Origin: Glaucostegus cemiculus
Lineage: Eukaryota
Assembly: GCA_976551045.1 (NCBI GenBank)
Contig: CDPCPM010000213.1
Span: forward strand, 868,001-932,000
DNA length: 64,000 nucleotides
Direction of reading: 5' to 3'
The first letter of the stretch is position 1, and every line of letters starts with the position of its first letter. Positions 26,771 to 64,000 of this stretch are shown here, one piece after another. Below the pieces are notes generated by a model that saw only the letters and a list, made by a program, of their open reading frames with translations, was not told the origin of the DNA and ran no database searches. The position numbers and the translations under genes were made by a program.

Positions 26771-28149
26771 CAGCAGGAATATGCCTGTCAGCTCTCTGTT
26801 CAGAAGGGGTTGTGAAGCTAACAGCTATCAAGAGGATTAGTTGCAGCTGGGATTAATGTAGCAATCTTTCTTTCAACTAAACTTAAATATTTGCATTATA
26901 TCTTCTGTAATTTTAAACTAAGGTGGGTTCCCAAAACTGCCGCTCTATATAGCAGTTTTATTCCCGCACCTTCAAGATCACTGCGTAGTTGGCAGGGTAA
27001 AACTCCCATCCCTGTTAAGTAAGCTAAAATAAGCCCTTAACCAGGCTGAAAAGGCTTAGGACTTTGGGCCTTTTTTGTGGAGGTTAAGAAACCCCATAAG
27101 GGGAAAATTTGAGTCTCCCAGCATACTTGGATACTCTCCAGACTTCTTGTTGTTGCTAGAACCTGTGGGTCTTGGCTCGGCTAAATCCAGAAGTTCCCAG
27201 GTAAGATCCAATGCCTTTAAGATTGGAACTTCACCTACGGTGTGTTACTGAAGAAATTATAAACAAAAGCTACTTAAGGTGCTATTAAGAGGTCCTCTAA
27301 ATAACTGCAAAAGTACATTGTGGAAAAATGATCAATTCCAGGAATTCTTAGTTCACTTACAGCTGTAGGTCCTCTAGTGCGTTCCTGTAAGATTTTGCAT
27401 TATAGATAAAAGGTGAATGATTTAAATCTTATACTCTTTCGGGTGCCACTGTGTACTTACAGTGAGGGATCTACTCAGAGAGACTTTTATTTGCACGGTG
27501 TATTCCATAATAAGAAATCGCATAGAAGTTTGCAAGTTTCAATGAAATATCCTCTCATTTACTTAAATTCTAGAGAATACCGAGTTGGTCAATTCAGTCT
27601 TTCTTCAAACGAGAACCTTCCGCCCCCGGAACCAGGCTACCCTCCCTCTACGGCAAGTGTGCCCTTTCTAGGTGTGATGATCAAAACTGTACAATATTCC
27701 ACGTGTGTTCTCATTAAGCCCCATTACAATTGCAGTAAGACTTTCTTCCTCCACTATTCAGAACCTTTCCTAATTTAAAAAAAACTAACATATAATTTGC
27801 CTTTCTAATCCCTGCATGTTTGCTTTTAGTAACTAGTTTGTAAATATTAACGTGTATATACCTTTAAGAACTGTGGTCACGACTTGATACATTGAGGTCT
27901 CAGCCAATGAGGCTTGTTCACCTCCAATAGAAGATATTTGTTTAGATATTGTTTATGCGTGCCTTACTTACGGAATATATGTTTGAGTAAGTATGTTAGT
28001 ACGTGTAAAATATACTTACTGTTAACCTGATTCATCGCAAATTGCACACAATTAAAATTTCCAACGTACACTGCATGCTTCGAGGGTTATAGGGTTGGGC
28101 ATTATAGGGATGAAGAAGGCCAAGGCTAGCTGGCAAGATTTTATTTTTT

Positions 28150-28620
28150 AAAGGAAGCCACTGCTGGAGTATCGGGGTGCGGGGGCCCAACACATTGGGA
28201 GGCGCTGCAGCTGCGGTAAAGCCGCCCCTCCGGCGGCGGCGCCACTCAGTGAGAACGGGCGGCGCCTGGCAACGGAGGGGCAGGAAAGAGACGGAGAAGG
28301 CGAGCGAGGAGCCGAGCCCGCGGCCGTGAGTAAAACCAGCCCCGCGGGAGGGGCTCTGCCGTCGGACGGGCGACGCGAGTCAGTGCGGCCGGGGAGTGGA
28401 GGAGACGGCGGCGAGGCCTGACACCCCCCCCCCCCGGTTCCTTCCCCCACCCCCTCTCTCCCTGAGGTGACGCTGACTGGGCCCCCGGGGCCGAGTATGT
28501 GGGGGTGGGGGGTGCCTTGTTTATTGACTCCACGGTCAGGTGCAGCTGGGCTCCAGTCACCCTGCAGCGCATCCCCGGGGTGGGCTTAACGGGGACCCAG
28601 GACCCTGAGCTCAGCCCCCT
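28150..28620 (+). promoter_or_regulatory. TMEM106A: CpG island: probable TMEM106 promoter and non-coding first exon (candidate donor CC|GTGAGT at 28326)
   Basis: Only GC/CpG-rich tract in the window; reverse CCAAT at about 28193; consensus donor; next gene downstream is TMEM106 with its ATG in an AG-flanked exon. Confidence 0.7.
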
Positions 28621-29559
28621 TCCTGCTTGGTGTAGGGAGTGAGTGCCTTCATGTTTATTTGCAGGGCTGAAATCCGATGCATTTGTCCTGAGTATTAATT
28701 ATTGACATTATGTTTTAAACGGAAGATGCAACCTTCACTGTTCCATTAATAGACACAAGCATGTCCTCAGCAGCCGCATTTAGTTCCTCATTTTACTTTT
28801 CAGTGCTAGGTGTGAGATTTGCTGTTTTGCAGTCTGATAGCACCCTACCAAAGCGATTATCCTTCTAACGCCACCTCATTACTTGTTCTCTACACCATTG
28901 AAAGCCGTTCACGTAATCACAACATTCTGCTTTCAAGAGTTCTTCGTTAAAGCCAGTTTGCACCACTACCCGATTTCTTGTTGTCAAATGTTCTTATTAG
29001 AAGCTCTCCCTGCAGTTTCATGCTCATTGTCCAGATTTTCAACTAGGTTAAGGCCCTTTAATGTGATAGAGGCTGTAAGACTGTGATAAGGTTTAAGATA
29101 GAATGTAGAGGAAAATGTTTTTCTTTGTTTAAGAGCTGAACGATGAGCCATAGTTATAAGATGGTTAATAAATCAAGCAATAGACTCAAGAAATTCTTTA
29201 TCCAGAGGATGCTTCAAATGTGGAACTTGCTGAGGTAACCAGCACAGGTGCATGAAGGGGGCCCAGATAATAGATGGAATATTAAATGAGGAATAGTAGG
29301 TGGTGCCTTGTGTGGAATGTAAGAACAGACGTGGACTTGGTTTTATGTAATATTGTGCAGTTTGTTGAACCTGCCTCATCTGTTTACATTTAAATGATGT
29401 TGTTAATGTGGGAAAGATATTCAATGATGTTTGTAGGATCAGATAGGGTATAAAACTGCCTGCAAAATGCATGCTGAGTGAATATTTGTTGAATGAACAT
29501 GAGCAGAGTAGTTGAAAATATGTCTTAGACTCTTGGAACATTTTGGAGGTTGGGATAGC

Positions 29560-42768: not shown

Positions 42769-43647
42769 CAGTGGCATGTAAAAGTTTGGGCACCCCGGTC
42801 AAAATTTCTGTTACTGTGAATAGCTAAGCGAGTAAAAGATGACCTGATTTCCAAAAGGCATAAAGTTAAAGATGACACATTTCTTTAATATTTTAAGCAA
42901 GATTACTTTTTTTAATTTCCATCCTTTACAGTTTCAAAATAACAAAAAAGGAAAAGGGCCCTAAGCAAAAGTTTGAGCACCCTGCATGGTCAGTACTTAG
43001 TTGCACCCCCCTTGGCAAGTATCACAGCTTGTACACACTTTCTGTAGCCAGCTAAGAGTCTTTCAATTCTTGTTTGGGGGATTTTCACCCTTCTTCCTTG
43101 CAAAAGGCTTCTAGTTCTGTGAGATTCTTGGGCTGTCTTGCATGCACTACTCTTTTTGTGGTCTATCCACAGATTTTTGATGATGTTTAGGTTGGGGGAC
43201 TGTGAGGCCCATGGCAAAACCTTCAGCTTGTGCCTCTTGAGGTAGTCCATTGTGGATTTTGAGGTGTGTTTAGGATCATTATCCTGTTGTAGAAGCCACC
43301 CTCTTTTCATCTTCAGCTCTTTTACAGACGGTATGATGTTTGCTTCCAGAATTTGTTGGTATTTAATTAAATTCATTCTTCCCTCTACCAGTGCAATGTT
43401 CCCCGTGCCACTGGCTGCAACACAAGCCCAAAGCATGATCGATCCACCCTCGTGCTTAACAGTTGGAGAGGTGTTCTTTTCATGAAATTCTGCACACTTT
43501 TCTCTCCAAACGTACCTTTGTTCATTGCAGCCAAAAAATTCTATTTCAACTTCATCAGCCACAGGACTTGTCTCCAAAATGCATCAGGCTTGTTTAGATG
43601 TTCCTTTGCCAACTTCTGATGCTGAATTTTGTGGTGAGGACGCAGGA
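42769..43647 (-). mobile_element. Truncated Tc1 (DD34E, IR-DR type) transposon: one TIR plus the transposase catalytic domain, inactive
   Basis: TA+CAGTGGCATGTAAAAGTTTGGGCACCC TIR, inner repeat CAAAAGTTTGAGCACCC at about 42966; PTVKHEGGSIMLWAC, QQDNDPKH, SQSPNLNIIKNLW (catalytic E replaced by K), frameshifts. Confidence 0.93.
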
Positions 43648-47000: not shown

Positions 47001-47934
47001 TAACACACATATTTGGGCATGTTTATTTCCCCTCTTAAATATGAAGTTTATATTAGTTTTCTGCTGTCCTCTGGCAATGTGCTTTTTTCTGACAGATTTT
47101 CAAATGAATGTAATAGTGCCTCTGACATCTCTTCCCAAATATAATCTTTCTGGATAGGTCATTTTTGAGTTTGAATGTTTTACTTACTGTTTCTCATTTT
47201 TGTATTTCAGAAATGATTAGTTTATTTAATATTTCCCTTTTTTATTTTCAAATTCTGATGTCTTCAGATATTCTGTCTAGTAATCTGTTACACTGAAGCA
47301 AATAGTTCTTTAACAATTCTACGATACTACAATTACTGCTTATGCCTCTCCTATTAGTGGCTCTATTTCTATTCTAACAAGCCTATTTCTCTTTTACTTC
47401 TGTGCTGGCTGATAATTTCATAGTTCATCTTTTATCTTTTTTTTTTATGTTGATGTCTCTCAATCTTTGTATTTTCCCATTCTAAGCAATCCTATGCTAT
47501 ACGGTATAAAATTAAAAGCCAAATCAACTATAGGCAATCTGAACCTGATGAATCCAAGTTCATAATTTTTTTTCATGCCTAATTGATCATTGCTGTAAAC
47601 ATTACAATTTCCAACATGCTCTTCACATGCACTAAGCAAATCCTCCCAGCCTGGATGAAGTACTGATCTGTACTGGCATGATGTGGCTCAACCCATCCTG
47701 AGCCAAACCTGAAGGTTTTATCAGAATGTAAATCAGAAGGTAAACATGCGGCTCTGGGCTTGAGTTGGCTCTACTCTGATAATCAGGCCCCCAAGGTAGG
47801 TCTATATATTTTAATTTATTTTGTCATGTCCTAAATTATCCATTATGTCCAACTTGTTTTTAGCAGAGTGTATTTTTCCCGGACTATGTTGAGAACCATT
47901 TTAACTTCTTTGCTGTTCTACATTATAACCTCAA

Positions 47935-48650
47935 GGGGGAAGAGGAGAGGAAGAGCAGTCGTGGTAGGGGAATTTGTAGTTAGGGGAGACGACGAGCATT
48001 TTAACAACCTAAGATATGAATTCAGGATGGTATCTGGTCTCCCTGGTTTCAAGGTCAAAAATGTCATTGAATGGTTGCTGCAGGGCATTTTGCATAGGGA
48101 GAGGGAGACCTAGACAGAGAGTGATGAGCTCCTGCGGCCAGAGTTTAGGAAAATAGATTTAAAAAAAACAGGACCTTGAGGATAGTAATTTCTGATTTAC
48201 ATGTGATTGAGTCTGGAAATAGGAAAGTAAAGCAGATGAGGTGTGACTGGAGAAATGGTACAGGTGGCAAGGCTTCAGATTCCTGAAGACCTTGGACTGT
48301 TTCTGGAAGAGGTAGAACTTCTACAAACCAGAAGGGTTGCACCTCACTGGAATGAAATTGGAATAATCTTGGTGAGGTTTTTCTAGTACTATTGGAGAAA
48401 TTTGGTAGGGGAAATGGTAACCTAGGGGTAGCATGGGAAAGGAGAAAAACTACGCTAGAAATAGAACATAGGAGTTCATAGGAGGCCAGAAAAAGGGAGA
48501 AGGCAATAGTGAAGCACACCAAGGGTAATGATAAGCTGAGTATCAGGAAAGAGCAGTGCATACAAGCATCAACAATTAGACTCAGAATAAGGAAAAATAT
48601 TGATAAAATTAAAGGCGTTCTATCTGAATGCATACAGCATACCCTCATAT
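47935..48650 (+). mobile_element. Degraded CR1 ORF1 (SGNH esterase-like) region
   Basis: RAVVVGEFVVRGDD...RMVSGLPGFKVKNV resembles CR1 ORF1 VIGDSIVRG...VCCLPGARVKDV. Confidence 0.65.
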
Positions 48651-51451: not shown

Positions 51452-52536
51452 TGGCTCTCCACTCATCCTTGGAGACAACAGCGAAACGTGTCAGGCTGAT
51501 GTTTATTGATTACAGCTTGGCATTCAACACCATCATCCTCTCAGTACTGATCAACAAGCTTCAAAACCTGGGCCTCTGTACCTCCCTCTGCAACTGGATC
51601 CTCAACTTCCTTGTCGGGAGACCACAGTCAAAGCAGATTGGTAGTAACGTCTCCTCCTCACTGACAGTCAATACAGGCACACCTTAAGGATGCGTGCTTA
51701 GCCCACTGCTCTACTCTCTCTACACTCGTGACTGTGTGGCTAGGCACAGCTCAGATGCCATCCGTAAATTCGCCGATGACACCACTGTTGTTGGCAGAAT
51801 CTCAGATGGCGATGAGGAGACGCACAGGAATGAGATTGGCTGGTTGAGTGGTGTCGCTATAACAACCTCACACTCAGCATCAGCAAGACCAAGGAATTGA
51901 TTGTGGACTTCAGGAAGAGGAAATCGGAAAAACACACACCAGTCTTCACTGAGGGGTCAGCAGTGGAAAAGGTGAGTAGCTTCAAGTTCCTAGGCGTCAA
52001 CATCTCGGAGGATCTATCTTGGGCCCAACACATTGATGCAATAATGTAGAAGGTACGTCAGTAGCTCTACTTCATTAGGTGTTTGAGGAGATTTGGTATG
52101 TCACAAAGACTCCTGCAAATTTCTACAGACGTACAGTGGAGAGCATTCTGACTGGTTGCATCACCGCCTGGCATGGAGGCTCCAATGTTCAGGATTGCAA
52201 GAGGCTGCAGAGGGTTGTAGACTTGGCCAGCTTGATCTAGGTACAACTCTCCCCGCCATCGAAGACATCCTCAAGAGGTGGTGCCTCAAGAAGGCGACAT
52301 CCATCATTAAGGACCTTCACCATCCGGGACATGCCCTCTTCTCATTACTGGAGCCTGAAGACCCATGCTTACTGTTTCAGGTACAGTTTCTTCCCCTCCT
52401 CCATCTGATTTATGAATGGTACATGAACACTACCTCGTTATTCCTTTTTTTGCACTATTTATTTATTTTTATAAGTTATAGTAAATTTTTATGTCTTGCA
52501 CTGTACTGCTGCTGCAAAAGAAATTTCACGACATAT
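51452..52536 (+). mobile_element. Rex1/Babar-type LINE, 3' half (outer copy; its tail resumes at about 53997-54010)
   Basis: RLMFIDYSLAFNTI, CNWILNFL, GCVLSPLLYSLYT, KFADDTTVVG. Confidence 0.88.
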
Positions 52537-53996
52537 GCCTGTTTTAAGAAGACCACTATCATTCCGATACCAGAGAAAGGTAAAGTAACGTGCCTCAATG
52601 ACTACTGTCCAGTGGCTCTGACATCCACCATCATGAAGTGTTTTGAGAGGTTGGTCATGGCACGCATCAACTCCAGCCTCCCAGACAACCTGGACCCATT
52701 GCAATTCGCCTATCGGCGAAACAGGTCTACAGCGGATGCCATCTCCCTGGCCCTACACTCAGCTCTGGAGCACCTAGACAGCAAAGACACAACCGTTAGA
52801 CTATTGTTTATTGACTACAGCTCTGCCTTCAATACGACAATTTCAAGCAAGCTTGTCACCAAACTCCGAGACCTAGGACTCAGCACCTCCCTTTGTAATT
52901 GGATCCTTGACTTTCTAACCAACAGACCACAATCAGTGAGGATAGGCAGCAATACCTACAACACGACTATTCTTAACACTGGTGCCCCACAAAGCTGCGG
53001 CCTCAGCCCTCTTCGCTACTTCCTATACACTCACGATTGTGTGGCCAGATTCTGCTCTAACTCCATCTACAAATTTGCAGATGGTACCACTGTTGTGGAC
53101 CATATCTCCAACAGCGATGAGTCAGAGTACAGGAAGGAGATAGCAAGCTTAGTGGAATAGTGTCACAACAACAACCTTTCCCTCAATGTCAACAAAATGA
53201 AAGAGTCGGTCATTGACTTCAGGAAAGGGGGCGGTATTCATGCACTTGTCTATGTCAATGGTGCTGAGATCGAGAGGGTTGAGAGCTTCAAGTTCCTGGG
53301 TGTGAACATCACCAGCAGCCTGTCCTGGTCAAACCATGTAGATACCACAGCCAAGAAAGCTCACCAGTACCTCTACTTCCTCAAGAGGCTAAAGAAATTT
53401 GGTTTGTGCCCTTTGACTCTCACCAACTTTTACCGATGCACCATAGAAAGCATCCTATCTAGTTGAATCATGGCTTGGTATGGCAACTGCTCTGCCCAGG
53501 ACCACAAGAAGCTGCAGAGAGTTGTGGACACAGCCCAGTGCGTCACGGACACCAGCCTCTCCTCCTTGGACTCTGTCTTTACCTCTCGTTGTCTTGGTGT
53601 AGCGGCCAGCAGAATCAAAGACCCCACCCATCTGGGACATTCTCTCTTCTCTCCTCTTCCATTGTGTAGAAGATACAGGTGCCTGAGGGCACATACCACC
53701 AGACTTAAGGACAGCTTCTACCCCACTGTGATAAGACTATTGAATGGTTCCCTTATACAATGAGATGGTCTATGACCTCACAATCTACCTTGTGTGACCT
53801 TGCATTTTATTGCACTGCACTTTCTCTGTAGCTGTGATACTTTACTCTGTACTGTTACTGTTTATACTGTACTACATCAATGCACTTTGTACTAACTGTG
53901 TAACTGCACTGTGTAATGAATTGACCTGTACGATCGGTTTGTAAGATAAGCTTTTCACTGTACCTCGATACAAGTGACAATAGTATACCAATACCA
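52537..53996 (+). mobile_element. Second Rex1/Babar-type LINE nested in the tail of the first
   Basis: [63 protein letters not shown]; CCAATA-repeat tail. Confidence 0.9.
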
Positions 53997-55405: not shown

Positions 55406-55565
55406 GAAGCTGTATGTGGCAGTTGCTGTGGTGATCAGCCTTTTGATCAGTGGGCTTGCGATCTTCTTCCTTTTCCCACGTTCCATTGATGTTGAACATG
55501 TTGGTATTAAGTCAGCTTATGTCATTGATGACAAGAAGGACTACAGAGTTATTCTTAAAATTACG
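55406..55565 (+). CDS. TMEM106A: TMEM106 exon: transmembrane helix and start of the luminal domain
   Basis: [39 protein letters not shown]...ILKIT; 160 nt with AG/GT. Confidence 0.94.
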
Positions 55566-55715
55566 GTAGGGTTGTTGTATATTAAATCCTGTGTAATGAT
55601 CAGTTGATAACAAAAGGACTGGATCATGTGTAATATGGCTTCTACCATCAATAGTGTTTAATCGTCCATTTTCTGGAGACTGGATACACATTGAAAGGAA
55701 AAACAGGAAAGCAGC

Positions 55716-56645
55716 ATAGAACCGTAGAACAACACAGCACAATACAGGCCCTTCGGCCCACCATGTTGTGCCGCCCTTAAAACCACACCTGACACTACCT
55801 AACCCCTTCCTCCCACATATCCCTCTGTCTTAAATTCCTCCATATGCTTATGTAACAATCTCTTGAACTTGTCCAATGAATCAGCCTCCACCACCACCCC
55901 AGGCAGCGCATTCCATGCAGCAACCACTGAGTGTAAAAAATCTCCCTCTGACATCTCATAGAAACATAGAAAAACTGCAGCACAATTCAGGCCCTTTGGT
56001 CCACAAAGCTGTGCCGAACATGTCCCTACCCTAGAAATGACTAGGCTTTACCCATAGCCCTTTATTTTACATAGCTCCGTGTACATATATAACAGTCTCT
56101 TGAAAGACCCTATCGTATCCGCCTCCACCACCGTTCCTGGCAGCCCATACCATGCACTCACCACTCTCTGAGTAAAAAAACTTACCCCTGACATCTCCTC
56201 TATATCTACTCCCCTGCACCTTAAACCTACATCCTCTCATGGCCACCATTTCAGCCCTGGGGAAAAGCCTCTGACTGCCTACCTGCTCAATACCTCTCAT
56301 CATCTTATATACCTCCTATCAGGTCCCCCCCCATCATCCTCCTCCTCCTCCAAGGAGAAAAGGCCGAGTTCCCTCAACCTGCTTTCATAAGGCATGCTCT
56401 GCATTCCAGGCAGCATCCTTGTAAACCACCTCTGCACCCTCTCTATGGCTTCCACATCTTTCCTGTAGTGAGGTGACCAGAACTGAGCACAATACTCCAA
56501 GTGGAGTCTGACCAGGGACCTATATCTCCCTTGAACTTCCCACCCAATACCTTAAAGCCATGCCTTCTTATTCTGAGCATCGGTGCCCTGGGAAAGAGGC
56601 GCTGGCTGTCCACTCTAAATCTATTCCTCTCAATATCTTGCATAC
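55716..56645 (-). mobile_element. Two nested CR1 3' fragments (inner copy about 55957-56520)
   Basis: Two CATAGAA tails (55716, 55957); outer copy breaks at GACATCT and resumes at ATCTCCCTTGAAC. Confidence 0.85.
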
Positions 56646-56957
56646 TTCATGTGGACATTGTAATCTGAAAATTGGATTGGATGCTCATTTCTGCTTTTCC
56701 TGGTTGTAATAATGTTTTGGACAGTGTCCATTAAGCCTTCAGGAGGTTTGTAAGTGCCATACAAAACTAGCCAAAACTTGACACTAGTTGGTACCAGGTT
56801 TCTACTTCATTCAATGGAACTATCATGAAGGCTACTGTGAAAAATGGAAAAGTGCTCTCTGGTTGAAGAGGGAAGGAATTGTGAGATTAAGGTTGATGCT
56901 TTTCATTATTATTTTAGCCTCTTCATTGCCACATTTTTTTTGCTTTCTCTTTTGCAG

Positions 56958-57098
56958 AATATATTAAATGTAACAAACTACAACTTCTACAGCATCAGTA
57001 TTACTGATCTCAATGTACAGATTGTGTTTTTTAATGAGGTCCTTGGAACTGTCAACATCAAAAATACCACAGTCTTCAGGCCTCTGGGAGGTGGCCAG
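56958..57098 (+). CDS. TMEM106A: TMEM106 luminal exon NILNVTNYNFYSISITDLNVQIV...PLGGGQ; later exons not found in the window
   Basis: 141 nt; TTTGCAG acceptor, CAG|GTAATG donor; matches the family NxLNITNxNYY...GPL pattern. Confidence 0.93.
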
Positions 57099-58400
57099 GT
57101 AATGAACATTGCCTCTGGTGTTAGTGGTGAATTGACTTGCTATTTTAACTGCAGTGTTAAATGGTGCTTTAAACAGGTTACACCTGTATTATAGTAGCAC
57201 ATAGGAATATCCCACGAACATGTAAAGATAGTATCCTTTAGTGTATCACAAAATGGCATATCTGACCTAATTATTTGCTTGTGTTAACCCTTGTTTTGTA
57301 CCTTGCCAGGGAAGATGTGGAAATTTTTTTGTAACTAAATATTGGTGTAGGGTAATCTTTGTACTTCAGATATAAGGCTGCATAGTGGACTTTGAGCACA
57401 GTGAATGCAAACCAGCAGGTGGATCTTTGTGTGGAACAAAATGCAGACATCTGGTTGAAGTAAGGTGGTAGATGCTGGTAAGGAAGATTCATGCCTGAGC
57501 CAATGAAGATGTAGATTATTATTCCTACAGTGGTGGAAGTAGATACAGATTGAGGCAAGTGATGCTGTTTGGAGCTGGAGGTAGGAAGTTGTGACAGTGT
57601 TGGACTGCACCTTGAATGTGAAGCTTTGCTCAAGGTCAGAAGAACCATTGCACAATAGTGGGTTGAATCCGAATAGACAGCTGGAAGAAATGATTGTCTT
57701 GTAAATGCTTAGATTTTCAACAATAAATATTCACCATTCATCCATAATTTTATAGGATTAGTTTCCTTTTTATTTATAAAATGTAGATCATGCAAGATCT
57801 GGGAAAAGAATGTAGTTAACTGCTGAGTTTCTGTTTCATAATAAGTGGACACTAAACCTTGTAATACAGTAAAACAATGAATATCCAGCATGCTCAGGAT
57901 TTTGGTGCTAGACTAACACATTTTTCAGACTACTGGATTCCTATTAGTACTCCATGACACTTTTAATTGACTTTAAAAGATGTACGGGTAGGTTAATTTG
58001 GGGGTTTAAAATGGGCAGCGTGGACTCGTTGGGCCAAAAGGGCCTGTTACCACGCTGTAAATAAAATTAAAAATTAAAAAAAAATATTTAGATGTTACAG
58101 AGTATTACAATAAATTTTCCAGAGAACCTTAAGTTTAAAGGAGCAGAGAAAATGGGTCCTAGTCAGCTTAAAGGGAGCATGGGAACCAGAGCCCCAGTGA
58201 GCTGAATGCAGGTGTGGGTACTGTGGCCCCTGGGAGTTGGAAGGGAGCAGGAAAGCATGACCTGAATGCCAAACCACTGGAACTTGCGAATAGTCAGGTA
58301 GCAGATTATTGGAGTTTTAATGTATTCATTTGGGCTAATCACTAGGGCAGTAAATGAGTGCAAATTAAATCTCAGACTCAAATGTTTTTCCCCAGCTTCA

Positions 58401-58715
58401 GTGAGACAGGTTAGTTTTACCCTGTTGGTGGTGTTATTGCAATAATTATCCTGCTCAGTACAAGAGGAACCATAAGTTCAGACGTTGGGTTTATGTGCAA
58501 AGCTACCGTCTGTGGGACTGTATCTGAACAGCTTAGTCAGAATCCCACTTAAATGTAATGATACCCTAGTGCTGAGCATTACTGCAGCTGCTGGCATGAA
58601 GCGCCCCTCATTACTGGCCTGGAGTGTGGATGGACTGGCATCACCTCTGACCTTTTTACTACACATTATGTTCGTGAGGAACCTGATGCTAAAATATTCA
58701 CAGACAACCTGATTC
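58401..58715 (+). pseudogene. Degenerate 28S (LSU) rRNA 3'-region fragment including the sarcin-ricin loop
   Basis: GTGAGACAGGTTAGTTTTACCCT; ATCCTGCTCAGTACaAGAGGAACC; AAGCTACCgTCTGTGGGA; AGTCAGAATCCC; ATGTTCGTGaGGAACCTG...AGACaACCTGATTC, collinear with vertebrate 28S. Confidence 0.88.
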
Positions 58716-59429
58716 AATATATTGAGATACCAGAGTGTCCATTTATATTTCTGTTCATCCAATATGTTGGAACCAAGCTAGGGCTTATGGCAGGTTTCAA
58801 TTAAGTCTTTTTATTCATTTTATTAAGGAGTGCATTTAAACGTTCCTATGAAATCCAGAAAACATTACACAGGACTAGAACTACAAATCTGCAACTTTTC
58901 CTGAAAATATTCTTTAGAAAATGCAATGAGTTGAGCAAAATTACACACAAATTGTGGGTAAATTGGTTTAATTTATGATCAACAGGGATAGTGATGTCAC
59001 AGCAGGTAACCCTCAATTATTGTGAAACTTTGTGCCCAAAAGTCATGCCAAACATTTAATTTTAATGTATGTATATTTAGTCGAGCAGGAAATTGCACTG
59101 CAGCATGGGATCCTGACTGCCATTTTTAGCACCCAGGGATAGTTTTGCAAATCGGACTGGCCCTTTCACTCTGACAGCACCTTCTTCTATCTGTGGTTAT
59201 ATTCTGTATTGATAGCAACTGCTGACAGTTCTTCTAGATTCAACTGCCAACAAAGTAAACAATTCGAATTTTCTTCCAGCATCAGGGAAGGGCTTTTTCA
59301 AAATGCAAATATAAATAGAAATTTTGTTTGTAAAACTTCCTATTCTCGGAATAAAGACACTGACCAGTGGATCTCTCAGCTGTTAGAAGGTGAAGGTGCT
59401 ATCATGAATTCTAAGTCTTTCATATACAT

Positions 59430-60040
59430 AGAACACAGAACAATACAGCACAGGAATAGGCCTTTCAGCCCAGCATGTCTGTACTGACCATGATGACAAT
59501 CTAACTAATTAAATGATTTTTAAACTTTACCGTCATATCTGCTTCTACCACCTCCTTTGGCAGTACATTCTAGGCACCTACCACTCTGTGTAAAAAAAAA
59601 ACTTGCCTCGCATCTCTCCTTTAAACTTTCCCTCTCTCATTTGACACTTGTGCTCTCTAGTATTTGTCATTCCTCCTTGGGAAAAGGTTCTGATTACCTA
59701 TTCTATCCATGTCTCATAATGTTATATATTCGATCAGGTTACCCCTCAGACTCCAGTGCTCCAAAGAAAACAATCCAAGTTTGTCCATCCTCTCCTCAAA
59801 ACTAAAACAGTCCAATTCAGGCAACGCCCTGGTGAACCTCTTCTGCACTCTCTCCAAAGCCTCCACATCCTTCCTACAGTGTGGTGACCAGAACTGCACA
59901 CAATACTCCAAATGTGGCCAAACCAAAGTTTTATACAGCTGTAACATGACTTGCCAACTTTTATAATCAGTGCCCTGATCAGTAAAGGTATGCATGCTAT
60001 ACACTGCCTTTAACACCCCATTTGCCACTTTCGGGGAACC
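59430..60040 (-). mobile_element. CR1 3' fragment
   Basis: Minus-strand ORF LYKTLVWPHLEYCVQFWSPHCRKD...; AGAACACAGAAC tail. Confidence 0.88.
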
Positions 60041-60052
60041 AGGTTTGTTGAT

Positions 60053-60848
60053 ATTTATTTATTTATTTATTTTTCAACCTTTTTTTATTGATAACAAATC
60101 ATTACAGGTTAAGATATATAACAACAATGTTTACACATGTATTATAGAAATATCAAGTAAATCATAGGTAATCATAAAAAAAAGCAATAAAGTATGATAT
60201 ATATAAAAGAAATAGTTCCAACAATCTCTCGATTCATAAGTGTAACGTAAAAGATAGAAAAGAAAAAGATTTGTTATATAATTAGAAAAAAAAACAAAAA
60301 GACCCCAAATCAATTTTAAAAAATCATAATAATATAGAGTAAATTAAACCGAAAATGAATTTAAAAAAAAAAGAAAAAAAAACAAAACAAGGAAAAAAAA
60401 AACTGGGCTAAAATTTTCAATAGAAATAGAACAATATAATGTCGTCAGCTCCGTTTCTCTAAATTTTAAAAAAAGTTATAGAAGGGGAAACCACATCATA
60501 TGAAAGTATTGAATAAATGGACTCCAAATATCTTCAAATTTAAGCGAAGAATCAACAGTACCACTCCTAATTTTTTCCAAATTAAGACATGATATAGTTT
60601 GAGAGAACCATTGAAAAGTGGTAGGGGGTGTTGGATCCTTCCATTTAAGCAGAATGGCTCGTTTGGCCATCAATGTAACAAAAGCAATCATACGATTAGC
60701 AGAAGCAGGTAAATGGCCAGACTTTATCCATGGTAATCCAAAAATTGCAGTACTAGGGTGAGGTTGTAAATCGATCTTCAATACATCTGAAATAATATTA
60801 AAAATGTATTTCCAATATTTTTCCAAATAAGGAAAAGACCAGAACATG
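60053..60848 (-). mobile_element. 5'-truncated L1/Tx1-type LINE: ORF2 C-terminus, 3' UTR and A-rich tail
   Basis: MFWSFPYLEKYW...AIFG...AKRAILLKWK...W...LEKIR...KFEDIWSPF is a typical fish-type L1 ORF2 end; AATAAA and (AAAT)n on the minus strand at 60053-60090. Confidence 0.88.
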
Positions 60849-62729
60849 GTGCTTAAAGGTAAAAACTTATCTGAGAAAGGTAGAAGTGCCCCACCTGGAA
60901 AGAGCAAAGTTAAAAAGTTTGATGGATCTAAAAATGTTGCATCAGGTAAAGCTGGGAAAGACAATTCAAAGTTCAAATCTCAAAAGTTTGAGAAGGCAGC
61001 AAAGTATAATGCCAACACATTGGCAAATGCAACTGGAAAAGCGAAAAAAATTAAGAGAGAACAGCAAACTGGAAGAAAGAGGAAGCAATTGGATGAAAAT
61101 GAAGAGGGAACCGTTGGAAAGAAACCTAAATGGAATGATTTCAAACAACAAAAGGAAGAACTAAAAGTGAACAGACAACAGGACAAGAAAACTAATTATG
61201 ATTTAATAATTCGACCAAAGCAGATCTGGGAAAGTGTAAGAAGAAAAGACTGCAATAAAGAGAAGAAAACAGAACTTATGAAAGAATTGCAGAATCTAGT
61301 CCATGGAAATATTAAAAATATTGCATTTGCTCATGATTCTGCCCGAGTAATCCAGTGTTATATTCAGTTTGGTGATGAAGAACAAAGGCAAGAGGTGTTT
61401 GAGGAATTGAAAGAGCATTTGGTTGACTTGAGTAAATCCAAGTAGGGAAGGCATATCGTGAAAAAAATTCTAATGTATGGAAATAAGCAACAAGTAGCTG
61501 AAGTAATTAAAAGTTTCAAAGGTGAAGTGAAAAGGTTACTGCGGCATTCAGAGGCATCAGTGATTGTGGAATATGCATATAATGACAAAGCAATATTAGA
61601 ACAGAGGAATATGTTAACTGAAGAGCTATATGGAAATGCATTCATGATTTGCAAGTCATCTTTTTGTCCAACATTGGATAAAGTTCTGGAATCTAATCCT
61701 GACAAGCGAGAAGGAATAATGGAAGAAATGAAAAAGATCCTCAACCTATGGCACAAAAAGAGGCAGTAATAAAGCACACACTGGTACATAAAGCATTTTT
61801 GGACTTCTTCACATACTGCCCTGATAAAATGAGAATGGAAATGATTGAATCGATAAGAGAAGCAGTCATCTACATGGCACATACGCATGATGGGAGCAGA
61901 GTAGCCATGCAATGTTTATGGCATGGAGCGCCCAAAGATAGAAAAGTTATTGTGAAAACAATGAAGACCTACATTGAGAAGATTGCTACTGGTGAATTTT
62001 CACATTTGGTTCTCACAGCAGCACTTGACTGCATAGATGACACAAAACTTGTCAAACAGATAATACTGTCGGAGATCATCAGTTCCTTGCCAAATTTAAT
62101 CAACAATAAATATGGCAAGAAGGTATTGCTTTATCTACTTAGCCCAAGGGACCCTGCGCATAGCGTGCCGGAAATTATTAAGCTTCTACAACAAGGTGAT
62201 GGCAATGCTCACAGTAAGAAAGTTACAAACATTCATCATCGTGAATTGCTAGAAGCCATCTCGCCACATTTGCTGAAGTATTTGCAGGAAAATGCACGTG
62301 AAATGGTGATGAATAAAGCAACAAGTGTCATTGTGGTAGATATTCTTGGCTGTGCCATTGGTGATGTGCAGCCGGCCATGAATGCTATAGCTAATATTGC
62401 TGCAGAATCTTTTGAACCTGGAGGCAAAAATGGTGAGCCCCACATAGCAGAACATCCAGCAGGCCACCTCATCCTTAAATGGTTAATAGAGCAAGATGTA
62501 AAGATGAAAGAACTTGGAAAGACAGAATGCTTTGCAAGAACATTAGTGGAGTGTGTAGGCATCAAGAATCTGCAGACCTGGGCACAAGTAAACCGTGGAG
62601 CTTTGTACTTTGCAGTCTTCTTCAAAGTAACAATGAGGATGTAGCCCAGGAAGTGAAAAAAGGTTTAAGAAGTCTCATTCCAAGTTCAAGAAGATGAAAA
62701 ATGTGAAAGGCGTGGAAATATAGTTAGAA
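60846..62729 (+). pseudogene. PUM3: Intronless (processed) PUM3/Puf-A pseudogene spanning essentially the whole CDS
   Basis: MVLKGK...KKPKWNDFKQQK...IAFAHDSARVIQCYIQ...MAQKEAVIKH...HIAEHPAGHL...KGVEI*LE is collinear with human PUM3 without introns; stops at 61443 and 62721; frameshifts near 61745, 62603 and 62684. Confidence 0.95.
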
Positions 62730-64000
62730 GGTTGGTTCATGAGAGTTTAAACTAGTTGGCGAGGGGGATGGGAACCAGGAGGGCAGGTCAGAGGATGTAG
62801 AGGTTACAGAAAAGGCAGATCTAACAGACAGAGTGGCTCTGAGGAAGGAGAAGCAGAGTACAGGCCATAATAGTAAAAAGGTGGATAAACTAATCAGGCA
62901 AGACGAAGGAAACCAGCTTAGATTAAAGGAGGAGGTATGCGGGAACAAGTCGATGTGTAGTGAAGGTGGTAAGAAGGACAGGCAGGTGGAAGGTAAGGAT
63001 AATTTAGAGATCAATAGAAGTTCATCAATATCTGTAGTTGATGCTGTTCTAAAAGTACTGTATTTTACTGTAATGCACGTAGCATTAGGAATAAGGTCGA
63101 TGACCTAGTGGCACAGCTACAAGCTAAAAAATATGATATCGTGGCAATCACCGAATCATGGCTTACTGACGGATGTGATTGGGAACTGAACATCCAAGGG
63201 TATACGGTGTATGGGAAGGATAGGAGGGTAGGCAGAGGGGGTGGTGTAGCCCTGATGGTCAGTAGTAATATAAAATCGATAGAAAGGAAGGACATAGGGG
63301 TGGAAGAAGTGGAATCCTTATGGGTGGAGCTAAGAAATAGCAAGGGTAAAAGGACGCTAATTGCAGTTATATATAGACCCCCTAACAGCAGCCGGGAGGA
63401 GGACTATAAGATACAGTTAGAAATAGAAAAGGCGTGTCAAAAGGACAATGTGAAGATAATTATGGGGGACTTAAACCTGAAGGTAGATTGGGAAAATCAG
63501 CGAGGAGGTGGATCGCAGGAAACTGAGTTTGTAGAATGTCTACAGGATGGCCTTTTGGAGCAACTTGTAGATGAACCCACCAGGGGATCAGCCATTTTGG
63601 ATTGGGTACTGTGCAATGAACCAGAGCTGATTAGGGAGCTAAAAGTAATGGAACCATTAGGAACCAGTGATCACAATATGATTGAGTTTGGAGTCAAATT
63701 TGAAAAGGAGAGGCTCATAACTGGTGCACATATATGGCAATGGAACAAGGGAAACTACAGCAGTATGAGAGAGGAACTGTCTTAAATCGATTGGAAGAGT
63801 AAGCTAGCAGGTGGGACGGTGGAGCAGAAATGGATAGAGTTTTTACAAGAAATAAGGAAGGTGCAGGATGGGTATGTTCCAAGAAAAAAGAAAGTTCTGA
63901 ATGGAAAAAAGGCACATATGTGGGTAACGAGAGGTTAAGGCTAAGATAAGAGCAAAAGGGAGGGCCTACAAGGTAGCAAAAATAAGTGGGGAAACTGAGG
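62730..64000 (+). mobile_element. CR1 LINE from the ORF1 end (RLVHESLN*) through the ORF2 APE endonuclease; runs off the window
   Basis: GAGAGTTTAAACTAG...GGGGGATGGGAACC ORF1/ORF2 junction; LKVLYF-NARSIRNK (5-nt insertion at about 63067), DIVAITESWL, RGGGVAL, YRPPNS, MGDLN, SDHNMI. Confidence 0.9.

Follow-up and report, generated by a model that had tools for sequence, protein, structure and literature searches.

A PUM3 pseudogene joined head-to-head to an L1 3' end in a ray genome: a likely inverted RNA/L1 chimera

In a 64,000-nucleotide (nt) stretch of the Glaucostegus cemiculus genome (contig CDPCPM010000213.1, positions 868,001 to 932,000, forward strand; hereafter the window), the 3' end of an L1 element on the minus strand meets, 5' end to 5' end, a spliced copy of PUM3 on the plus strand. 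Did these two parts arrive together, as a first-pass annotation of the window had proposed, in one insertion bounded by a target-site duplication (TSD), or were they brought together in some other way? We conclude that the locus is likely to be an inverted RNA/L1 chimera: it combines a 5'-truncated L1 that carries its own tail, a partner placed 5'-to-5' and microhomology at the join. The explanation we favour, to which we give about an even chance, is a single L1-driven event whose second end was twin-primed on PUM3 messenger RNA (mRNA); this and the other weightings given below are judgements rather than computed values. From left to right, the locus consists of unique DNA, a CR1-type element (CR1-A), a 12-mer, the L1 3' end, PUM3, a second 12-mer and another CR1-type element (CR1-B). 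The parts on which the argument turns are the following.

60041-60052: left candidate TSD copy, abutting the L1 tail; it would have provided the primer end for L1 reverse transcription.
60053-60847, minus strand: 5'-truncated L1-clade element of 795 nt, recognised by its open frame; (AAAT)n tail, 3' untranslated region (UTR) and last 123 codons of the second open reading frame (ORF2).
60841-60848: stretch of 7-8 nt shared by the antisense L1 and the PUM3 5' UTR plus ATG, recognised from the start of the mRNA alignment and from the L1 MFW codons.
60846-62729, plus strand: processed PUM3 pseudogene, codons 1-629 of 638, lacking 3' UTR and poly(A), with 2 stops and 3 frameshifts.
62729-62740: right candidate TSD copy, starting on the last aligned PUM3 base; perhaps the first 12 nt of CR1-B.

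The identity of the plus-strand part is clear. The PUM3 ATG lies at 60846-60848, and the alignment to the 638-residue sawfish protein begins at residue 1. The nearest PUM3 is that of the sawfish (93% over 94% of a 313-residue query, followed by skate with 91% and torpedo ray with 86%), and the copy is 93-95% identical to it over two long pieces. A spliced PUM3 contig of 2472 nt from a relative, organism B (record 16 of run X15, a run that we presume, as a guess, to be RNA), can be aligned to 60841-62729 with 3 gaps and 65 letters that differ. The copy is thus intron-free: it is colinear with the spliced mRNA, and the pieces of relatives' DNA end at exon edges. Off the stretch are the nine codons that follow in organism B's contig, its stop and a 3' UTR of 540 nt. 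No poly(A) follows PUM3 in the window, the longest run of A in 62730-64000 being 6, and the first-pass description of a cDNA without 3' UTR or poly(A) therefore stands within the window. Two further statements, that the copy ends about two codons early and that its coding sequence is complete, need correction, since the copy stops at codon 629 of 638, having lost nine codons and the stop, and its frame is interrupted by stops (61443, 62721) and by one-base losses (61743, 62602, 62679). Among the features of a processed pseudogene, the lack of introns and the disabled frame are present and a canonical poly(A) tail is absent within the window. The five disablements rule out a working retrogene; the copy is dead and truncated, and probably of no consequence for the animal. 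It does exist as DNA in its processed form, as judged from two contigs of organism A (X1), at 61354-61759 and 61937-62127, that span exon joins, differ from the window at 1 and 0 letters, respectively, and keep the 61743 frameshift.

The copy has decayed only slightly. Over three in-frame segments totalling 608 codons (codons 300, 586-587 and 612-629 were excluded), 36 codons differ between the copy and the sawfish protein. At 7 of these 36 the copy is closer to other rays than to the sawfish, which indicates that the parent PUM3 has changed as well; the remaining 27-29 differences imply ~2.0-2.2% change in the copy. A parent PUM3 exon piece from organism A shows 2 differences in 202. The unambiguous amino-acid-changing differences in the copy comprise 12 G>A and 2 C>T (p=0.056, allowing for opportunity). 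Of the 12 G>A, 8 lie within the first 145 codons (60846-61280; p=0.003, noticed after the fact). Other changes lean to these codons likewise (Fisher p=0.25), and the contexts of the G>A changes are mixed. Cytidine deamination of the cDNA made last could explain this excess, as could noise in a region that evolves fast.

The minus-strand part matches what the first-pass annotation had described, namely an L1 with its tail at 60053 and truncated at its MFW codons. The tail appears on the plus strand as (ATTT)n at ~60053-60072 (60052-60072 according to TRF), and the frame encoding the ORF2 C-terminus is open on the minus strand from the MFW codons (60839-60847) to the stop at 60476-60478. We take the element to belong to the L1 clade from its motifs and from its look-alikes in the Atlas; the latter score 0.95-0.96 and fall in chordate clusters, one of them named RT zinc-binding, with a recognition value below threshold. 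The piece 60053-60847 has no match in Pfam. A related L1 at 532-760 is flanked by a 12-nt TSD with 1 mismatch, and the 3' ends of the two L1 copies are 74% alike. In L1 orientation, the nick sites read TC/ATGA at the 60041 locus and TC/AGGT at the 532-760 copy. Neither fits TT/AAAA, the consensus of the mammalian L1 endonuclease, a motif that may not be that of this ray L1 family.

The join itself is the most informative part of the locus. The first-pass annotation had correctly recognised a 5'-to-5' junction of the two parts and a palindrome, CATG, common to both; the sharing is in fact longer. Because organism B's mRNA aligns from 60841, 5 nt upstream of the ATG, and the L1 extends to 60847, the two sequences share AGAACAT(G), i.e. 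7-8 nt, the eighth base requiring, by inference, that the preceding L1 codon end in C. The AACATG microhomology sought in the parental mRNA is thereby present, and extended. The mRNA comes from a relative, and the end of its alignment may conceal one mismatch. When the two sequences were joined at random, at least 7 nt were shared in 0.0009 of 400000 trials (0.0009-0.0003 as the null for 7-8 nt). Annealing therefore formed the join, whether two cDNA ends paired or a later deletion brought the sequences together. The left flank is not duplicated at the L1/PUM3 join, which rules out that the L1 inserted there alone with a TSD of its own.

Both parts are young, as shown by comparison with two relatives, organisms B and C, whose listed left-flank pieces diverge from the window by ~6% (54/879 bases in B, 70/1156 in C). 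In the bin covering the L1 tail and UTR (60038-60204) the depth is 0.37 in B and 1.15 in C, against ~13 for single-copy sequence and 202759 in organism A. In the PUM3 bins, B and C have a single-copy depth of 9-19, and 8/8 listed PUM3 pieces end at exon edges. From these data we take both the L1 subfamily and the PUM3 retrocopy to be missing in 2/2 relatives compared (B and C, of 4 other organisms). This shared absence fits one event and is no proof of it, because the branch is long. CR1-A, by contrast, is shared, since contigs of B and C (records 17 and 25) run from unique DNA into its tail. One contig of organism B skips 327 nt at 58590-58916 that are kept in C (records 17 and 24).

A locus of this kind has published counterparts, and the route that the first-pass annotation called unusual is already documented in mammals. 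Doucet et al. (2015, PMC4476161) described inverted U5/U1/U2/U6-L1 chimeras formed by twin priming in mammals. As in those chimeras, a tail-less, 3'-truncated partner lies here opposite a 5'-truncated L1 between TSDs (candidate TSDs in our case), and the internal priming of the partner at the second cut is the route that we propose as well. Unlike them, the partner is a spliced mRNA of 1.9 kb instead of a short small nuclear RNA (U5 being cut at 36-48), and the cut reads TC/A with 1 nt of visible complementarity instead of the mammalian L1 consensus cut with complementarity to the primer. Law and Burns (2026, PMC13174262) reported antisense mRNA/L1, 5S/L1 and tRNA/L1 chimeras in the human genome; 2 of their 17 mRNA/L1 chimeras are antisense and were called more consistent with twin priming. 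These are germline mRNA-L1 chimeras, as here, dated there by orthologues, but in 17/17 the non-L1 piece measures 74-612 nt (Table S5 coordinates), compared to 1889 nt and 629 of 638 codons in the present cartilaginous fish. Nine two-transcript insertions were found in L1-expressing human cells (PMC11702581), where opposite orientation was attributed, in a manner that would apply here, to the joining of two reverse-transcribed ends via microhomology; those insertions are somatic and induced, and due to human L1. Microhomology at inversion joins also belongs to the twin-priming model (PMC2912911). Lastly, tailless retropseudogenes (Noll et al. 2015, PMC5322556), some derived from mRNAs and attributed to internal priming, resemble the PUM3 copy in being 3'-truncated and devoid of poly(A); they differ in being a therian feature that involves a single RNA, an A-rich target and 2-18 nt of complementarity, whereas here an L1 piece occupies the other end. 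For cartilaginous fish, a survey counted 14,081 retrocopies, 95.7% of them species-specific and 15.7% with an ORF (bioRxiv 10.64898/2026.06.26.734816); it deals in counts rather than junction structures, and 'chimer' does not occur in its main text. Among titles and abstract beginnings, in a search that mostly left out subscription journals, no paper turned up on inverted mRNA/L1 chimeras in sharks or rays, or on sawfish PUM3. What sets this locus apart from the published cases is the host group, cartilaginous fish, and the size of the partner.

A single event would have proceeded as follows. The L1 protein would nick the top strand after the 12-mer and copy 795 nt of its own RNA, starting from the tail. 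The bottom strand would be cut 12 nt off, and its end would prime PUM3 mRNA internally, at codon 629/630, yielding a 1.9 kb PUM3 cDNA that reaches back to the 5' UTR. The two cDNA ends would then anneal at the 7-8 nt shared stretch and be filled in, with duplication of the 12-mer; neutral decay would subsequently alter ~2% of the copy and about one position in each 12-mer. The insertion site would likely be the first 12 nt of a pre-existing, young CR1-B, at its border with the older CR1-A. Several observations support this scheme: the head-to-head arrangement, with the L1 tail outermost and a tail-less, 3'-truncated partner; the 7-8 nt microhomology and the absence of an L1 TSD at the join; a 10/12 match that exactly abuts both ends, with the 12-nt length of the other L1's TSD; TC/A at both L1 nick sites (n=2, noticed after the fact); and the same age bracket for L1 and PUM3, both absent in B and C.

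The geometry could also result from twin priming in cis, as the first-pass annotation had suggested, if a PUM3 transcript with an L1 piece in its 3' UTR had been inverted upon insertion. Such inversions are common (20 of 235 retrocopies are 5'-inverted in PMC11702581) and the same study traces 4 retrocopies to mRNAs that have L1 close to their 3' end. The mRNA contig of organism B argues otherwise: it includes a 540-nt 3' UTR, yet its single listed piece on the stretch does not touch the L1 (a subfamily that is in any case absent from B). Moreover, the inner breakpoints of inversions are often close, with deletions or duplications of 1-10 nt (PMC11702581), while at least 30 nt would have been lost here. 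We therefore disfavour the cis route and leave it only a slim chance.

Twin priming on two RNAs predicts a TSD, and the 12-mers at 60041-60052 and 62729-62740 are the candidates. They are 10/12 identical and equal in length to the TSD of the L1 at 532-760, as the first-pass annotation had stated. With up to 2 mismatches, the left 12-mer occurs at 14 other places in the window, both strands included. Random pairs of sites match as well in 12-31 of 4000 trials for tight registers (0.003-0.008) and in 28-94 of 4000 when ±3 nt are allowed; three scoring settings were used, and we quote an overall chance of 0.003-0.02. The resemblance is suggestive: it favours a TSD, not decisively. The proposal that the 12-mer also provided an LE-RL microhomology with PUM3 does not fit, because batoid PUM3 reads LEKL in 8/8 near-length ray and skate proteins listed, and in the isoform P0125 as well. 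Two exact 10-mer pairs, at 59382-59391/62723-62732 and 60034-60043/62770-62779, each occur twice only in the window, one copy per side of the insertion; they stand beside the junctions possibly by chance.

The reading of the 12-mers depends on what lies outside them.

59420-60040, minus strand: CR1-A, an old, 5'-broken 3' end of a CR1-type long interspersed nuclear element (LINE), comprising the reverse transcriptase C-terminus and tail, recognised by protein identity to copies in the window.
62741-64000, plus strand: CR1-B, a young CR1-type LINE recognised by Pfam, with a presumed ORF1 end followed by the ORF2 endonuclease, running off the window.

The name CR1 is our assumption for both, made from their motifs together with the matches listed. 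At the protein level, CR1-A shares 50-64% identity with 5 copies in the window; with one further copy the value is 37%. The left flank of the insertion is the 5' break of this minus-strand element, and the left 12-mer begins at that break. We rejected the idea that this 12-mer is CR1-A sequence, as it matches 3/12 in register with one other copy (at 31 kb), a weak test. A stretch just outside the CR1-A tail, 59413-59423, matches each 12-mer at 8/12 with a gap, which is within chance; it could be a decayed CR1-A TSD, implying that one site was used twice. On the right, CR1-B starts at the PUM3 junction or at most 12 nt from it, and its endonuclease matches Exo_endo_phos and Exo_endo_phos_2 in Pfam, both above cut-off. 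In frame with E-S-L-N-stop, the right 12-mer encodes R-L-V-H; this is a putative end of ORF1, in view of a resemblance to the way CR1 ORF1 proteins end. At 62989, the window's base makes up 95% of the depth in organism A (X1; 5% other letter) and <0.1% in B and C (X3 and X6; 99.9% other letter). CR1-B thus appears to be young and of a subfamily typical of organism A only, a conclusion that depends on a single diagnostic base in the 40 rows listed of 390. The L1/PUM3 unit lies between two different CR1-type elements that face each other, rather than within a single interrupted one.

Against a single event, several points have to be set. A true 12-nt TSD would show two or more mismatches in only 5-12% of cases at 1.5-2.5% decay per copy (P~0.08 at ~2%), and when ±10 nt of freedom is granted, 27-88 of 600 random pairs (0.045-0.15) do as well, so that the match becomes unremarkable. 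The mRNA alignment ends at 62729, leaving only 1 nt of primer-template match visible. The CR1-A break falls at the left end of the TSD, and the apparent CR1-B start at its right copy, a coincidence that the scheme leaves unexplained. The 7-8 nt join fits a later microhomology deletion equally well, and CR1-B could have cut the retrocopy afterwards, because it is itself young (62989 allele). Neither do the contigs help: the comparison is dominated by CR1 copies (24 of 3176 loose ends and 30 records of >175,000 pieces were listed), no joint across the insertion is found among the best 15 of 239 joints listed (60042-60080 being skipped as repeat, which makes this uninformative on the empty site), and among the contigs listed none bridges either PUM3 junction in organism A. 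In addition, X1 depth is 0 on the PUM3 side of both junctions (60873-61206 and 62543-62709), by itself no evidence. In sum, of the first-pass proposal of one TSD-bounded insertion, the microhomology, the joint absence in relatives and the geometry stand in favour; the TSD, at 10/12, is a suggestive candidate, and the visible priming match is 1 nt.

The unbridged junctions are also what a misassembly fusing unrelated repeats to a retrocopy would leave. We regard this as the least probable explanation of all: the two organism A contigs within PUM3 span exon joins and keep the 61743 frameshift, an overlap of 7-8 nt would not suffice for an assembler join, and relatives' contigs follow the left flank in order.

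The right junction calls for a more serious alternative, the main rival, which we hold to be less likely than a single event on two RNAs but ahead of the other alternatives. The PUM3 retrocopy may once have been complete, a young CR1-B having inserted at codon 629/630 and pushed the rest past the window, with a 10/12 match due to chance; the L1/PUM3 join would then go back either to a single break in which two poly(A)-primed copies met, or to independent insertions later fused by a microhomology deletion. Such a cut agrees with a CR1-B whose start lies no more than 12 nt from the PUM3 end, which continues out of the window and whose subfamily is typical of organism A alone, and with a right 12-mer in frame with the presumed CR1-B ORF1 end; it also accounts for the missing tail and the 1-nt overlap without any special priming. 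It requires, however, a chance match of 0.003-0.02 and, separately, the landing of the L1 tail 12 nt from the CR1-A break. Nor is CR1-B visibly younger than the copy: its ORF2 carries 3 disruptions over 0.96 kb, compared with 5 over 1.88 kb for PUM3.

The coincidence of breakpoints at the left 12-mer would be resolved if three RNAs had been used at one break. The end of a CR1-B cDNA inserting into CR1-A would have jumped to PUM3 mRNA; at the other end, the top strand would have copied 12 nt of CR1-B cDNA and then primed L1 RNA, and the new cDNAs would have joined at the 7-8 nt. A single bond would then account for the CR1-A break, for where the duplication begins on the left and for the apparent 5' end of CR1-B. 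PUM3 and CR1-B are co-oriented, as in template-switch chimeras, all three parts look limited to organism A's lineage and similarly decayed, and insertions with more than two reverse-transcribed pieces have been observed in cultured cells (PMC11702581). On the other hand, two unrelated LINE families would have to act at one break, for which no precedent was found in the literature (no search was aimed solely at it), the 12-mer is only presumed to be CR1-B sequence, and the absence of CR1-B from this site in the relatives is inferred from one base. We consider this course of events improbable; if true, it would mean that L1 and CR1 machineries met at one germline break and moved a nearly whole coding sequence without poly(A). 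Other orders of events have a chance slimmer still than that of the cis route.

The right 12-mer may belong to the young CR1-B, contrary to the old right flank assumed by the first-pass annotation. The empty site that it predicted contains CR1-B, and so probably does not exist in the relatives sampled.

If the twin-priming reading with PUM3 mRNA as second template is correct, twin priming on a foreign RNA would extend from mammals to cartilaginous fish, and from pieces no longer than ~600 nt to 1.9 kb. Nearly whole coding sequences could then be copied without poly(A), and an L1-clade element would be implicated in making at least some of the retrocopies in rays. The evidence concerns one locus.

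The insertion lies in the intron that follows the TMEM106-family exon ending at 57099.

55407-57099, plus strand: host TMEM106-family exons (~55408-55566 and 56959-57099), recognised by Pfam TMEM106 matches.

These matches (E=2.5e-09, above cut-off, and E=0.0011, below cut-off) cover adjoining profile positions, 1-29 and 31-73; by-eye inspection of 57101-59420 revealed no further TMEM106-like exon. A GC-rich island at 28001-29000 (GC 0.55 vs ~0.38) is probably the promoter of this host gene. The start of the window is the end of NBR1 (Pfam N_BRCA1_IG at 3-239).

Further copies of CR1-B were looked for elsewhere. DNA patterns gave 0 matches in viral contigs and in metagenome contigs, protein searches with the region upstream of the endonuclease gave 0/119 candidates and 0 representatives, and endonuclease patterns gave no confirmed locus among 4 and 73 matches. 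A decayed piece at 47931-48450, of a family other than CR1-B and with no Pfam match, is presumably a CR1 ORF1 esterase region, judging by its motif; a search for relatives with the decayed ORF1 piece at 47937 yielded 0/13. At 51500-53980, two adjoining, related plus-strand LINE reverse transcriptase copies, nested or in tandem, are 66% alike over 737 nt. The minus strand at 42990-43583 holds a 197-codon open frame that reads as a putative Tc1/mariner transposase remnant. Finally, the stingray PUM3 isoform P0125 has an N-terminal extension that is 63% like the antisense CR1 endonuclease region at 63260-63397 (minus strand); this gene model has probably taken in a CR1-derived exon, unless it is an artefact of annotation.

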